Translations under genes and position numbers: made by a program
In this document: positions 4,264 to 11,228 of the stretch, in pieces
Numbering within the stretch: the stretch's first letter is position 1
How the letters are laid out: every line of letters starts with the position of its first letter
Assembly: GCA_965224025.1 (NCBI GenBank)
Contig: OZ245033.1
Span: 3,360,001 to 3,424,000 of the forward strand
Length of the DNA: 64,000 bases
Source of the DNA: Candidatus Multivorans sp.
GTDB lineage: Bacteria > Acidobacteriota > Thermoanaerobaculia > Multivoradales > Multivoraceae
Reading direction: 5' to 3'
Notes under the pieces: generated by a model
What the model was told of the DNA's origin: nothing
The model's database searches: none
Seen by the model: the letters and a program-made list of their open reading frames with translations, nothing else

Positions 4264-5562
4264 TCAGGGGTAGATCCGATCCATCGTTCGAGGGTAGGGG
4301 ATTGTCTCTCGCAGGTGATGGACGCCGGCCATCCAGGCGACGAAGCGCTCGACGCCCATGCCGAAGCCGCTGTGCTCGAACGTGCCGTAGCGGCGGATGT
4401 CCAGGTACCACTGGAAGGACTCGAGCGGCAGATCGTGCTCCTTGAGCCGCGACAGCAGCAGATCGTGGTCGTGGATGCGCTGGCTGCCGCCGATGATCTC
4501 GCCGTAGCCTTCCGGAGCGATCACGTCGAGCGCCAGGGCCAGGGTCGGGTCTTCCGGGTCGGGTTCCATGTAGAACGCCTTCAGTGAAGTCGGGTAGTGG
4601 GTGACCATCACCGGGCGGTCGAACTGCTGGGCGATCGCGGTCTCTTCCGGAGCGCCGAAGTCGTTGCCGAACTCGATCTCCGACCCCTGGCGGCGCAGCA
4701 GGTCGATCGCTTCCGTGTAGCGGAGCCGCGGGAAGGGCTTGCGGATCGCTTCCAGTTTGGACGTGTCCCGCTCGAGGACCCTGAGCGGGTCGCCGCAGTT
4801 CTCCAGCACCCGCTCCGCCAGGTAGGCGACGAAGTCCTCGGCCAATTCGCACAGGCCCTCGAAGTCGAGGAAGGCCGCTTCCGGCTCGACCATCCAGAAC
4901 TCCATCAGGTGGCGCCGGGTCTTCGACTTCTCGGCCCGGAAGGTGGGGCCGAAGCAGTAGACCTTGCCGAGAGCGGCGGCCGCGGGCTCGAGGTAGAGCT
5001 GGCCGGACTGGCTCAGGTAGACGTTGCCGTGGTCGAAGTACGGCGTCTCGAACAGGGTCGAGGCCCCTTCGCACGCCGCCGGCGTCAGGATCGGCGAGTC
5101 GACCAGGTAGTAGCCGCGCTCGCGGTGGAAGTCGTGGATCGCCTGGCAGACTTCGCTGCGGATCCGCAGCACCGCGCGCTGCCGGCTCGAGCGCAGCCAG
5201 AGGTGGCGATGGTCCATCAGGAAGGCGGTGCCGTGCTCCTTCGGCGTGATCGGATACCCGTCCGCGCCGCGGACCAGTGCCAGGGACGAGACGTGGACCT
5301 CGACCCCGCCGGGCGAGCGCGGGTCGGCGGCGGCGGTGCCGCTCACCGCGACTGTCGATTCCTGCGTGGCGTGTTGGAGCGCCTCCCAGGAGGCCTCGTC
5401 CACCTCCTTGCGGCTGATGACGAGCTGCACCGTGGCACCCGAATCCCGGAGCTGGATGAAGCCGATCCGGCCGCTGGAACGGCGGCCGTCGACCCAGCCG
5501 CGCAGGCGGACTTGCTCGCCGACGAGCGCGCCCAGCTCGGGGATCGAATTCCAGCCGCTCAC
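4264..5562 (-). CDS. asnS: Asparagine--tRNA ligase
   Basis: OB-fold N-terminus, YLSQSGQLY, GPTFRAEKSKTRRHLMEFWM, EIIGGSQR, HSGFGMGVER. Confidence 0.96.
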   Translation of the reverse strand: MSGWNSIPELGALVGEQVRLRGWVDGRRSSGRIGFIQLRDSGATVQLVISRKEVDEASWEALQHATQESTVAVSGTAAADPRSPGGVEVHVSSLALVRGADGYPITPKEHGTAFLMDHRHLWLRSSRQRAVLRIRSEVCQAIHDFHRERGYYLVDSPILTPAACEGASTLFETPYFDHGNVYLSQSGQLYLEPAAAALGKVYCFGPTFRAEKSKTRRHLMEFWMVEPEAAFLDFEGLCELAEDFVAYLAERVLENCGDPLRVLERDTSKLEAIRKPFPRLRYTEAIDLLRRQGSEIEFGNDFGAPEETAIAQQFDRPVMVTHYPTSLKAFYMEPDPEDPTLALALDVIAPEGYGEIIGGSQRIHDHDLLLSRLKEHDLPLESFQWYLDIRRYGTFEHSGFGMGVERFVAWMAGVHHLRETIPYPRTMDRIYP

Positions 5563-7741: not shown

Positions 7742-8455
7742 TGAGCTTGACCCGGTTCGTGGACACCGGATCCTTGTAGGAGGAGGTATCCGCGATGCCG
7801 AGATCAAGAGCCCCGTACCCAGCAGAGTTCCGGCGCCAGATGGTGGATCTGGTGCGGTCCGGGCGCAGCCCGGACCATCTAGCCCGCGAGTTCGAACCGT
7901 CAGCGCAATCGATCCGTAACTGGGTAGTCCAGGCGGACCGGGACGATGGCCGCCGAGATGACGGGATGACCACCGCCGAGCGCGAGGAGCTCCGGAGGCT
8001 GCGCCGTGAGAATCGGCGTCTGCGCGAAGGGCGGGAGATCCTGGCAAAAGCAACGGCCTGGTTCGCCCGGGAGACGAGGCCCAAGAGGTCTACGGGTTCA
8101 TGAGGGCGCACCAGGCCGTGTTCCACGTCACCACGATGGCCCGGGTGCTCGGCGTCTCCTCGAGCGGGTTCTACGCGTGGCTCAGGCGGCGGTGCTCGGC
8201 GCGGTCGCAGTCGGATGACAGTCTGTTGCGGCAGGTGCGGGAGATTCACCGAAGCAGTCGGGGCACCTACGGTGCACCACGCATCCACGCGGAGCTGGTG
8301 GAGTCGGGGGTCTGCGTAGGCCGGAAGCGGATCGCCCGTCTGACGCGAGAGGCCGGCTTGGCCGGCATCAGCCGACGCAAGGGGCCCCGCACCACGCGCC
8401 GCGACCCGCAGGCCCTCCCGGCGCCGGATCTGGTCAACCGCCGGTTTCACCGCCG
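7742..8455 (+). mobile_element. IS3-family element, truncated (orfA 7795..8103; orfB from about 8100, cut before the DDE core)
   Basis: TG-initiated left end; orfA YPAEFRRQMV...EREELRRLRREN; orfB GTYGAPRIHAEL...PAPDLVNRRF, after which the similarity ends. Confidence 0.9.
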
Positions 8456-8863
8456 TTGCTCCGGACCGCCTATGGCCATCCGTTGCCGGCCCGGTCCAAG
8501 GAAGCCAACCGGAAGAAGTCAAAGGTGCGCGCGCGAGTTGAACACGTCTTCGGCCACCAGGAGGCGATGGGCGGGAAGCTGGTCAGGACAGTGTGCCTGG
8601 ACAGGGCGAGTTGCAAGATCGGAATGATGAATCTTGTCTACAACCTGCGCCGCTCGCTTGGCTTGGCGCCCGCAAACCGTTGAGCCCCGCTCAAGCTGCC
8701 GCCTGAGCCCCCGGGTAGGCGGCCGCCACCGGCAAGCCCGCCCTCCGAGTCGGCCCGAAACCGCGGCCGCCTCTCCTTCGAGCCGGCCAGTCGCCCTACA
8801 ACTCCCATCCTCTCCGGCGATACGTCACCAAACGATGCCGTCAAACCGATTCTGAGAGCCTCC
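8456..8863 (+). mobile_element. IS5-family transposase C-terminal fragment and probable right end
   Basis: NRKKSKVRARVEHVFGHQ...KIGMMNLVYNLRR. Confidence 0.8.
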
Positions 8864-8965
8864 CATCTGGCGCCGGTACTCTGCTGAGTACGGCGGGCTT
8901 GATCTCGGCGTCGCGCGTACCTCCTTCTACAAGGATCTGGTGTCCACGAAACCGGGTCAAGCTCA
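8864..8965 (-). mobile_element. IS3-family left-end remnant, inverted
   Basis: Minus strand reads TGAGCTTGACCCGGTTTCGTGGACACCAGATCCTTGTAGAAGGAGGTA, nearly identical to the sequence from 7742. Confidence 0.85.
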
Positions 8966-9460
8966 GGCGGTAGTACCGCTGGTGCCAGATGCCCGCCTGG
9001 TCTTCGTCGTCCATGGGGCATGCGCCAGGTGCGGACGGTCGCCCGGGCCAAGTCCAGGGAGTAGCGGCCGTCTGGCTGGTCGATTCTGGTCTGGAATGCG
9101 GTCCTCGGCAAGCGTCCTGCGGGACGTACCGGCAGGCGATCCGGCGATAGCGGTCGCGCCAGCGGTCCTCGACGCTGATGTCGTGGGCGAGTTCCGCGTC
9201 GCCTTCGACGAGGACCTTGCAGTAAGGGAAGATCCTGCTCGTCGAACGTCAGGTAGGGTCGGGGATCGCCGTCGCAGGTTCGCGAACCAGGCGGAGTTCT
9301 CGGGACGGCGTGAACCCGGGTGGCGCGACCTGCGCCACCCGGGAACCACTCTGTGCTCCCGTCATCGGACACACGGATAGCACCAATTTGCCTCCTCCCA
9401 GAAGTTTGGGGATCACTAGGGGGCCACCCGTCATCGCAGACTGTGCCGATCCGCGTCAGA
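8966..9460 (-). pseudogene. PPOX/pyridoxamine 5'-phosphate oxidase-family gene, second decayed copy (5'-truncated, frameshifted)
   Basis: Nucleotide similarity to 10760..11178 (WFANLRR, KVLVEGDAEL, WRDRYRRIACRYVP). It extends further 3' (TVRTWRMP...GIWHQRYYR) until cut by the IS3 end. Confidence 0.8.
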
Positions 9461-9474
9461 TTGTCGTCTTTCGT

Positions 9475-9777
9475 CTATAGCGGCTCACAGACCTCGTATG
9501 CGACTGTAAGGGCCACCAAAGCAATGCCACGCTTGATGAACCGGGGGAGGCCACGAGCCTGTTTCCCTGCTTCTGTCATGACAAAACGGTAACAGACATC
9601 TCGAACTAATCCTCTACCGGTGATGTCTGCCAGTTCGGCATCTGTGAGTTGTCGGAAGTCGTATGGATTCGGGCCAGAAACGTCGGTAGGTGAGACAGGC
9701 ACTTGTAGTACTGAATGGGGAATACAGACAGCGAATACAAAGCCGGACAGTACGACAGGTAGGACTGCTCGCTTCAT
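9475..9777 (-). CDS. Putative secreted bacteriocin/RiPP precursor (signal peptide, GG-type leader motif, 2-Cys core)
   Basis: AAAAGGAG RBS; MKR plus hydrophobic N-terminus; LTDAELADITGR fits LSxxELxxIxG(G); lies directly downstream of a C39 peptidase. Confidence 0.7.
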   Translation of the reverse strand: MKRAVLPVVLSGFVFAVCIPHSVLQVPVSPTDVSGPNPYDFRQLTDAELADITGRGLVRDVCYRFVMTEAGKQARGLPRFIKRGIALVALTVAYEVCEPL

Positions 9778-9858
9778 CGTTCGATGACTCCTTTTATTGT
9801 TCGTGAACGAGTTCGACGGGCCGTGGGGCCGGCCGCATGATGTCGAGGCGAAGGTCCA

Positions 9859-10503
9859 TCAGCGGATCATATGGTCTCCTTTCGTTTTGTTCGAGACGCG
9901 TGTGGTGGTGGGAAAGGTCAGGTCCCAAAGGACTGACTCGCTCAGGCTATGCGCTTCCGCGCTGAAGGTGAGGACGATTCCGTCCCAAGCCCGGAGGAAG
10001 GTGGCCCGACTCATTCTTAGTCGACCGAGCGAGGGGTCGTCGACGATCACGTCGTTTGCGATGCTCCGTATGACGACGAAGTGGTCGCCGTGAACGTGAG
10101 CGATTGCAGGCGTCGGCACGTTGCTGAGTCCCTCGGTCGGCACGCGAAAAGCTAGGCTTGAGAGGCCTCGTGATTCGGCGGCGCGCTTCAGGGCCAGGAA
10201 AGTGCTGCCCTTTGGCCCGCTACTTGTGGCGGCGTCGAGTTCTTCGAGTGTGCTGTCAGTGATTCCGTGGTGGTGGAGGATCATCTGGAGGGCTGCCGCC
10301 CCGCAGTCGGATAGATCTCGCTGCAGGACGAGCGAGCCGTCGGCCGGTGTCTTGGGATCCAGAGAAGCTACCCAAGAGAGTCGATCGCGCGTGGCCGGGA
10401 CCGTGCACGAGGTTGCGGTGACGAGCCCGGCCGCGAGCAGCCAGACGAAAAAGGCGGGTCGCTGGCACCGCAAGCGACTGGGCCCGTGAGCGGTAATGCT
10501 CAT
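9859..10503 (-). CDS. Stand-alone C39-family peptidase with lipoprotein-like signal
   Basis: LQRDLSDCGAAAL (Gln/Cys), GDHFVV (His), DDPSLG (Asp); N-terminal AFFVWLLAAGLVTATSC; no ABC domain. Confidence 0.88.
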   Translation of the reverse strand: MSITAHGPSRLRCQRPAFFVWLLAAGLVTATSCTVPATRDRLSWVASLDPKTPADGSLVLQRDLSDCGAAALQMILHHHGITDSTLEELDAATSSGPKGSTFLALKRAAESRGLSSLAFRVPTEGLSNVPTPAIAHVHGDHFVVIRSIANDVIVDDPSLGRLRMSRATFLRAWDGIVLTFSAEAHSLSESVLWDLTFPTTTRVSNKTKGDHMIR

Positions 10504-10748
10504 CGTATGTAGAGCAGTTTGAGCACCGAGCGGCCTCGGTTGCGCGTCGGCGACGTGGGCGACGTTGTGGTAGGCGGGAGGGTCAGAAGCCGCTCCCGAA
10601 AGATCGGCGGCGGCAAAGGTCCCGGTCGCAGGCGCGAGGATCCCTAGGGTGGACGCGAGAAGCGGTCGTTGACAGGTCGAGCGGAATGCCGACGCTGAAG
10701 AGGCGAATCAGAGCGTTCTTCCCTCCCTGCACCGACACAGTGTGGCGA

Positions 10749-11228
10749 CTAAAGTGCCTCCAGGTCCAGACGGTAAAGGCCACGTGGCTTGTCGATCGTC
10801 GCCGGTATGTAGTCCTCGGCGGCGTCCTCCGGCACGTACCGGCAGGCGATGCGGCGGTAACGGTCGCGCCACGCGTCGTCGACGCCGATGTCGTGGACGA
10901 GTTCCGCTTCGCCCTCGACGAGGACCTTGCGGTAGGGGAGGTTCTGCTCGTCGATCGCGAGGCAGGTGCGAGGGTCGCGCCTCAGGTTGGCGAACCAGAC
11001 CGAGTTCTCGCGCGGCGTGGACCCGGGTGGCGCGACCTCGCGCCACCCGTGAACCAGTCCGTGCGCCCGTCATCGGGCGCACGGATGGCACCAGATCGCG
11101 TCCTCCTTGAAGATGAACCAGATCGGAGTCACTAGGGGCCGGCCGTCGTCGCAGACCGTGCCGACCCGCATCAGGATGCCGGGCTCGGCGAGGAAGGCGT
11201 CGCGCTCGCCGTCGGTCATCGTCGGCAT
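10749..11228 (-). pseudogene. PPOX-family gene, first copy, interrupted by a 69-nt twin-hairpin insertion containing an in-frame TGA; probably 3'-truncated
   Basis: MPTMTDGERDAFLAEPGILMRVGTVCDDGRPLVTPIWF...[insert]...TPRENSVWFANLRRDPRTCLAIDE...KVLVEGEAE. Confidence 0.8.

Follow-up and report, generated by a model that had tools for sequence, protein, structure and literature searches.

Double-glycine leaders are generally regarded as a signal that acts in the cytoplasm, where the peptidase domain of a dedicated ATP-binding cassette (ABC) exporter reads it, and those who mine genomes for class II bacteriocins and microcins seek this pairing. Here we describe a two-gene cassette of another build, located in a stretch of 64,000 nucleotides, hereafter the window, from Candidatus Multivorans sp. 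(Acidobacteriota, Thermoanaerobaculia; GenBank assembly GCA_965224025.1, contig OZ245033.1, positions 3,360,001 to 3,424,000). The cassette encodes a stand-alone C39 peptidase and, downstream of it, a small precursor in which a signal-like N-terminus precedes an internal double-glycine-type (GG-type) leader and a core with two cysteines. We find it probable that the cassette is an orphan copy of a conserved module for the maturation of peptides outside the cytoplasm and, judging from the sequences of its relatives, a lead to a widespread system.

The peptidase-containing ABC transporters (PCATs; PCAT1, ComA and LahT), together with their GG-leader class II bacteriocins, microcins and pheromones, share several traits with the cassette: the peptidase fold, the catalytic Gln/Cys/His/Asp, the leader register, and the combination of a conserved leader with a variable core. 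The differences are in the architecture. In the window the peptidase is free-standing, has about 200 residues with one N-terminal membrane helix and lacks fused ABC domains, while the leader is internal, behind a Sec-type signal and a spacer, and the residue at position -1 is looser.

In its logic the cassette also resembles SDP of Bacillus subtilis, with its protection by YknWXYZ, and the heat-stable enterotoxins of Escherichia coli. These are Sec-exported pre-pro-peptides that are oxidised and trimmed after export, so that a signal peptide, a pro-region and a disulfide-bonded mature peptide outside the cytoplasm are common to all, although the families are unrelated. In the SDP case a Yip1-type protein and an ABC system are linked to self-protection. 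We know of no C39 peptidase or GG leader in either the SDP or the enterotoxin systems.

Three further systems may be compared. Bacteroidetocins have an N-terminal leader of 15-16 residues and no signal peptide, and an ABC transporter with a fused double-glycine peptidase both cuts and exports them (Coyne et al. 2019, PMC6671954). Their clusters carry a thiol oxidoreductase of their own, needed according to the authors because general disulfide machinery is lacking (PMC6671954). As in the present case, these are Cys-containing GG-leader peptides of diderm bacteria with a dedicated thiol oxidoreductase, and the genome of the window is likewise without a DsbB or VKOR match. In the functional-amyloid system of Pseudomonas, FapD is a Sec-exported stand-alone C39 peptidase that is active in the periplasm and whose substrate is unknown; by its authors' account the Fap proteins are without canonical C39 leader sequences (Rouse et al. 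2017, PMC5557850). FapD is thus a precedent for a C39 fold working outside the cytoplasm, but at the window no fap-type neighbours are seen and the adjacent gene encodes a leader in the canonical register. Bufferins, finally, are small Cys-containing precursors of ribosomally synthesised and post-translationally modified peptides that reach the periplasm by a Sec signal, a situation that their authors call rare (PMC11626156). They are modified by cytoplasmic MNIO enzymes and released by signal peptidase alone, and as described they have neither a second leader nor a C39 peptidase (PMC11626156). In the literature that we could search, which leaves subscription journals mostly uncovered so that an earlier account is possible, we found no published description of a Sec signal followed by a GG leader, or of an anchored C39 peptidase with such substrates.

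Both open reading frames (ORFs) of the cassette are found in the ORF list with sequences identical to those of an earlier note, which had been made from the letters of the window alone. The 214-residue protein matches the Pfam family Peptidase_C39 (PF03412) over residues 58-183 with E=1.6e-28 and 99.7 bits (cut-off 22), and nothing else of note is found in the Pfam scan of this protein. The catalytic Gln/Cys/His/Asp motifs reported earlier are intact: Q61, C67, H141 and D155/D156 are invariant across 15 relatives (alignment A1), and they align with the peptidase domain of PCAT1 (E=5.3e-11). Among solved structures, the peptidase domains of PCAT1, LahT and ComA come closest. In agreement with the earlier description there are no ABC domains, for which 214 residues are too few. 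Membership in three named groups was rejected: the PCAT models of NCBIfam are matched over their first ~130 positions only (76 bits against 853), FapD (NF058616) reaches 50.1 bits against a cut-off of 330, and the C39 peptidase of the FilB pilus system (NF050078) 23 bits against 475.

The N-terminal anchor of the peptidase has a hydropathy value of 1.85 in the segment starting at residue 18, with three positive charges on the N-side and two on the C-side. The ATSC that had been taken as lipobox-like is present in the window, but its Cys is missing from the other 14 rows of A1; what the rows share is an N-terminus with positive charge and, after it, a single hydrophobic helix, as in a signal anchor or signal peptide. 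Signal and anchor calls were made by simple sequence rules, for peptidases as well as precursors. By these rules a hydrophobic helix is found at the N-terminus of 55 of the 55 anchored C39 proteins (40 distant relatives and the 15 rows of A1), and signal-type N-termini on both proteins, as proposed earlier, are conserved in relatives. Lysine and arginine are more frequent on the N-side of the helix in 44 of these 55 proteins, equally frequent in 7 and less frequent in 4. Given this excess the peptidase domain is predicted to face outward. The reversed topology, with the C39 domain in the cytoplasm, was rejected, because the charge bias opposes it and the signal would be severed from the core before export.

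The precursor has a clear n-region (MKR) and a clear h-region of ~14 hydrophobic residues. Its leader is not N-terminal, unlike usual GG leaders, and begins at residue 44, after the signal-like segment and the spacer. The register L-12, E-8, L-7, I-4, G-2 and the Arg at -1 are both seen at residues 44-55, as the earlier note had it, and the core of residues 56-100 does contain the two cysteines described, Cys62 at position +7 and Cys97 four residues from the C-terminus. In the precursor alignment A2, L44, D46 and G54 of the leader are invariant, and so is C97. Since the putative Sec signal lies N-terminal to the GG leader, a cut at the leader would have to follow export, as a cytoplasmic cut would sever the signal from the core.

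The precursor matches 0 Pfam families, and its sole NCBIfam match is the BlpC leader profile over residues 41-72 (E=0.0022, 17.7 bits against a cut-off of 70); none of the bacteriocin or precursor profiles of NCBIfam is above its cut-off for the precursors of the window or of the other loci. Among look-alikes in the ESM Atlas the best score is 0.81, to unnamed clusters that give no lead. The structure model, built from 6 sequences, is of low to moderate confidence (mean predicted local distance difference test, pLDDT, of 61), with helices at residues 5-18 (the signal, low confidence), 46-74 and 79-97, and pLDDT below 50 in the spacer at 20-37 and 39-41. In such a model Cys62 and Cys97 could staple a helical hairpin near its open end. 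A complex prediction of C39 residues 40-190 with precursor residues 34-78 scores 0.44, as does one unrelated control.

The precursor of the window is of a rare type. Apart from itself, the best match to it in 300 genomes has 43% identity over residues 8-64. A homologue of 98 residues from another sample, P0002, is 74% identical and keeps the open frame, both cysteines, the Gly-Arg-Gly and the leader. Counted by eye, the alignment of the two has 10 differences in the 55 positions ahead of the site and 16 in the 43 that follow it. Judged from this alignment, the pair is an instance of the conserved-leader, variable-core pattern of leader-dependent peptides.

The residue at -1 was compared over 99 called precursors in the canonical register, 73 from the genus and 26 from other phyla. 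It is G in 52, A in 32, T in 8, S in 4, and R, E and M in 1 each. The residue that follows is Gly in 11 of the 11 precursors whose -1 is not G, A or S, while it is Gly in 17 of the 88 with a small -1, and on the strength of the former count the site of the window belongs to a G-x-G variant. Arg at -1 occurs only in the window and in P0002; the nearest other relatives, at loci L007 and L014, have Gly-Gly. From the sequences it would seem that either larger residues at -1 are acceptable to the exported clade, or the cut moves by one residue, to after the second Gly.

The genome of the window holds related genes elsewhere. A second C39 gene lies on contig 1 at ~1.804 Mb, in an operon with the order signal-anchored thioredoxin-like protein (CGNC), C39, three small signal-bearing ORFs, two large membrane proteins without a family, an ABC ATPase and a Yip1-domain protein. 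One of the small ORFs has a textbook leader that ends in ELAQLTGG. A third cluster on contig 1 at ~2.697 Mb (2696431-2698211; L049) has two signal-plus-GG precursors between ABC-2-like permeases, downstream of a 1605-residue fusion of an AcrB-type resistance-nodulation-division (RND) pump with an ABC ATPase. This fusion could be an export route across the outer membrane. One precursor of the third cluster has Gly-Glu-Gly at the site. The earlier statement that no transporter or modifying enzyme is nearby holds for ~3 kb on each side of the cassette, but the same genome has the full operon and the transporter-linked third cluster. Further, the genome, which is 100% complete by marker genes, has 3 DsbA-family matches; that neither DsbB nor VKOR is matched in it fits the need for a dedicated oxidoreductase, as argued for bacteroidetocins.

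To recognise precursors we used a rule of four parts: a signal-like start, a GG register score of at least 7, a Cys at most 12 residues after the site, and a Cys at most 8 from the end. Of the 584 signal-like small ORFs in the complete 5.14-Mb genome, 8 pass the rule, a count that shows enrichment and is no unbiased test, since the rule was written after the sequences had been seen. Of the eight, three adjoin one or other of the two C39 genes, two belong to the third cluster, and the remaining three are seemingly unrelated. A stricter regular expression passes 1 of 628 ORFs, and this one adjoins the second C39 gene.

Next, we turn to the genus. The 44 related C39 loci that were retrieved are all from metagenome-assembled genomes labelled Thermoanaerobaculia, 'Candidatus Multivorans', Holophagales or Acidobacteria; for the precursor count the genome's own second locus was added, giving 45. 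At least one precursor that passes the rule is found downstream of C39 in 40 of the 45 loci, and 72 of the 121 signal-bearing small ORFs downstream of these genes pass it. Two of the five loci without a precursor (L038 and L040) end at a contig edge right after C39. The 40 loci have one to three of them close behind C39. There are ~ten core families overall; in nearly all of them the site is followed by the first Cys at a distance of 4-9 residues, and the last Cys is 1-5 from the end. Among the flanking genes, a thioredoxin-like gene is directly upstream in 40 of 44 loci (best NCBIfam matches ResA, TlpA and MauD, all below their cut-offs), an ABC ATPase is downstream in 37 and a Yip1 gene in 33, and a gene for a SNF2-type helicase is found upstream of C39 in 38. 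Orphan C39 copies without thioredoxin, ABC and Yip1 partners are those of the window, L007, L014, L047 and L048; L007 and L014 have an intact C39 gene and one GG-type precursor, the only part that they have in common with the window. Gene content, motif conservation and co-occurrence at these loci are direct observations.

By the A1 profile, all 31 genomes sampled from the genus have the subfamily, and neither of 2 other genera of the family has it. Matches in the rest of the class are weak (3 genomes at E 1e-27 to 1e-30) and are mostly long PCAT-like frames.

Two side observations belong to these loci. The pair of C39 and precursor in L007 and L014 comes directly after a homologue of the ABC part of the 1605-residue fusion. 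In most loci of the genus the first gene after C39 (for example L050, 8320-8643) encodes a signal-bearing Pro-rich peptide with 4-6 Cys and no GG motif; some of these peptides end in repeated Pro-Phe-Pro and Cys-Pro motifs.

The module is not limited to this group. A profile search of 1.84 billion representative proteins gives 12,107 C39 relatives at E<=0.001 and 4,190 at E<=1e-10; among the best 150 of them, 125 are shorter than 260 residues, and many of the matches begin in the anchor region of the profile. An alignment of eight distant anchored C39 proteins (A4) led to 44 loci in Ignavibacteria, Bacteroidota, Terriglobia, Aminicenantia and others. The analysed set consists of 31 of these (L062-L092, E<=3e-32); the 13 loci L093-L105, weak or partial with E of 3e-21 or worse, were dropped before counting. 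Of the 31 loci, 26 have a small ORF, beginning 93-762 nt past the C39 match and on its strand, that combines a signal-like start with a canonical GG site and two or more Cys. Some leaders, which end in EMMQITGG or EMQCVIGG, precede Cys-rich cores. In 24 of the 31 the end of a thioredoxin-like gene is found immediately ahead of C39; the best match of this gene in one locus is ResA (E=3.5e-18, below cut-off). An ABC ATPase is found in 10, and one neighbouring gene in Ignavibacteria has a weak match to the YknW family. These counts indicate that the three-part module is not restricted to one lineage, and with those of the genus they bear out the expectation that homologues co-occur with such precursors.

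Two more features of the distant loci may be mentioned. A MauE/DoxX-like multi-pass membrane protein with CGCFG is encoded ~2 kb downstream of C39 in 10 of the 31 loci (Bacteroidota and Ignavibacteria, for example L073, 6271-6705), which suggests that it forms a dedicated disulfide-forming pair with the MauD/ResA-like thioredoxin. In L088 (Acidobacteriota, 4674-5007) the signal-like start and the GG-bearing core are in different frames, possibly by a frameshift or an assembly error.

For topology, cleavage, disulfide and activity we infer the following route. The N-terminal signal would direct the precursor into Sec export. Anchored on the outer side of the inner membrane, the C39 peptidase would then recognise the helical GG-type leader (residues ~44-55) and cut at Gly-Arg-Gly, after either Gly-Arg or the second Gly. 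The released peptide of ~45 residues would then fold as a helical hairpin with a Cys62-Cys97 disulfide, formed in the full operons by the TlpA/ResA/MauD-like thioredoxin encoded directly upstream, which for the window would have to act in trans. The product would most likely be a membrane-active, bacteriocin-like peptide, and in the full operons the ABC transporter and the Yip1/YknW-like membrane protein may handle the peptide or give immunity.

Sec export followed by extracytoplasmic C39 processing had been proposed in the earlier note, and the signal-type N-termini and the co-occurring precursors argue for it: peptidase, oxidoreductase and precursors all bear export or anchor signals. In favour of a membrane-active, bacteriocin-like product are the multiple divergent cores at each locus, the neighbours of Yip1/YknW-like and ABC type, and the link of the third cluster to a pump. 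For the loci taken together we lean, with some reserve, towards a general reading: anchored, outward-facing stand-alone C39 peptidases, a TlpA/ResA/MauD-like oxidoreductase and precursors with a Sec signal and then a GG leader would make up a widespread pathway of ribosomal-peptide maturation in diderms, with periplasmic cutting and disulfide stapling into helical-hairpin or Cys-rich peptides, independent of PCATs. The Gly-Arg-Gly of the window would then point to a relaxed G-x-G specificity of this exported clade.

A number of points weigh against this. The precursor of the window has no clean AxA-type signal-peptidase site; those of L007 and L014 have SVA and then T at this place. To our knowledge, no characterised C39 domain accepts Arg at -1. 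The cassette stands without thioredoxin, ABC and Yip1 genes, amid pseudogenes and fragments of insertion sequences (IS), and a route across the outer membrane is not evident for it. The closest relatives of its C39 protein, P0004 and P0005 (88-89% identical), have recorded starts at an internal Met past the catalytic Cys, which could mean damaged N-termini or merely miscalled starts. The precursor rule, as said, is post hoc. Finally, the main operon occurs throughout the sampled genus at a conserved position, and clusters of accessory bacteriocins are usually patchier than that.

This last point makes a housekeeping role in the envelope a serious rival. The maturation pathway would be the same, but its products would be housekeeping peptides of the envelope or membrane, for example small hydrophobic subunits or stress peptides, with the ABC and Yip1 proteins for handling and not for immunity. 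The occurrence of the C39 subfamily in every sampled genome and its fixed place by the helicase gene speak for such a role, as do the Gly/Ala-rich, hydrophobic cores and the fact that the other exported C39 peptidases named in NCBIfam (FapD and FilB) serve fibre systems. However, 2-5 precursors per locus, drawn from ~ten divergent core families with conserved leaders and variable cores, are typical of diversifying toxins; the Yip1/YknW-like gene with an ABC transporter recalls the protection against a self-made toxic peptide known from YknWXYZ and SDP, and the related precursor cluster adjoins ABC-2-like permeases and the RND-ABC pump. We hold the housekeeping role to be fairly unlikely.

A second rival concerns the window alone: the system may be real for the family, with this cassette a decaying, non-functional orphan. 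The surroundings give some reason to think so. The GC (guanine plus cytosine) content is 52-55% over 9350-9950, against ~68-70% around it, and the cassette (~9405-10821) lies between direct repeats of ~300 nt, 82-86% identical, that are two damaged copies of a PNPOx-like gene (the right copy matches PNPOx_N with E=1.8e-4, below cut-off). Fragments of IS3 and IS5 type adjoin the region: at 7795-8683 there are an IS3-type HTH_Tnp_1 and HTH_21 without the catalytic core and a C-terminal piece of DDE_Tnp_1. The opposite side has a MatE fragment and a gene for a short-chain dehydrogenase. The window cassette is, in short, an orphan copy in a low-GC, IS-littered island. The missing partner genes, the Arg at -1 and the internal starts called for the nearest C39 relatives point the same way. 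Against decay, both ORFs of the cassette are open, no catalytic residue has been lost and there is a ribosome-binding site; P0002 has diverged to 74% identity and still has its open frame, both cysteines and the leader; and the two-gene pair is intact in L007 and L014. We regard decay as unlikely, and a probable orphan copy of the maturation module remains our reading of the cassette.

It is also conceivable that the adjacency is real but that C39 acts on a different substrate, perhaps the Pro-rich Cys peptide or some other protein of the envelope, and that the GG-like motif is no cleavage site. This is what the first gene after C39 in most full operons, the unknown substrate of FapD and the variety of residues at -1 (G, A, S, T, R, E, M) would suggest. 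It is nevertheless very unlikely, as the window, L007 and L014 have nothing but C39 and one GG-type precursor, in other phyla 26 of 31 loci have the GG precursor as the very next gene after C39, and the motif retains the -12/-8/-7/-4/-2 register of known C39 substrates. That the product is no toxin but a pheromone of ComC/BlpC type, secreted for signalling, is what the weak BlpC match would point to, but this is highly improbable: this match is far below its cut-off and covers the leader common to all GG peptides, neither the cassette nor the full operon has a histidine kinase or response regulator, and each locus has several cores, which are long and hydrophobic.

If extracytoplasmic maturation by anchored C39 peptidases is as we describe, current genome miners skip a large set of peptide natural products. 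Further, the poorly understood exported C39 peptidases would gain candidate substrates, and a simple module of two or three genes would be at hand for periplasmic disulfide-bonded peptides in Gram-negative hosts. In this group of Acidobacteriota the system is a genus-wide trait. Most related genomes carry labels of sponge or marine metagenome-assembled genomes, and in that habitat the system may have a part in competition or in the biology of the envelope.

Features of the cassette and its flanks (positions in the window; minus strand marked by -)
Feature	Position	Strand	Basis or remark
Precursor gene, 100 residues	9475..9777	-	ORF list; stop codon 9475-9477
Precursor signal-like N-terminus, residues 1-22	9712..9777	-	Sequence: MKR, then hydrophobic stretch
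Precursor Pro/Ser-rich spacer, residues 23-43	9649..9711	-	Differs among relatives
Precursor double-glycine-type leader motif LTDAELADITGR, residues 44-55; residue 56 is Gly	9613..9648	-	Register equals family consensus
Precursor core peptide, residues 56-100, with Cys62 and Cys97	9478..9612	-	
Intergenic gap between C39 and precursor genes, AAGGAG (Shine-Dalgarno-like) at 9788-9793	9778..9858	-	Direct reading
Stand-alone C39 peptidase gene, 214 residues	9859..10503	-	ORF list, Pfam, alignments
C39 protein N-terminal hydrophobic anchor or signal, residues ~18-35	10399..10452	-	Hydropathy; kept in alignment A1
C39 domain, protein residues 58-183, with Q61, C67, H141, D155/D156	9955..10332	-	Pfam
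Upstream non-coding part of the cassette	10504..10821	.	Indels here in a relative's contig
Left flanking direct repeat: frameshifted PNPOx-like copy, includes ~70-nt dispersed repeat	9112..9404	.	
Right flanking direct repeat: PNPOx-like gene broken by ~70-nt repeat	10822..11112	.	82-86% identical to left

The distance of 81 nt between the two genes makes an operon plausible, and the AAGGAG is 10 nt 5' of the ATG of the precursor. A scan of 9300-10900 gave no consensus of a sigma-70-type promoter or of a terminator. Several contig joints skip ~1.7 kb between the repeats, but as their sides are short (22-32 letters in most, 53 in one) and lie in repeated sequence, we do not count them as evidence that the cassette is excised. 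A contig of 5232 nt from a sponge-metagenome run of another study is collinear with positions 8900-10655 of the window.

The transposase fragments are bounded by inverted repeats of 93 nt, at 7751-7843 and 8863-8955. The dispersed repeat of ~70 nt, with two GC-rich hairpins, is found at 11021-11092 and 9312-9385, that is at the same place of insertion in both PNPOx-like copies. It has 136 blastn matches in its own genome including the query, and a very high contig depth in three runs; it looks like a repetitive extragenic palindromic (REP-like) or miniature inverted-repeat transposable (MITE-like) element.

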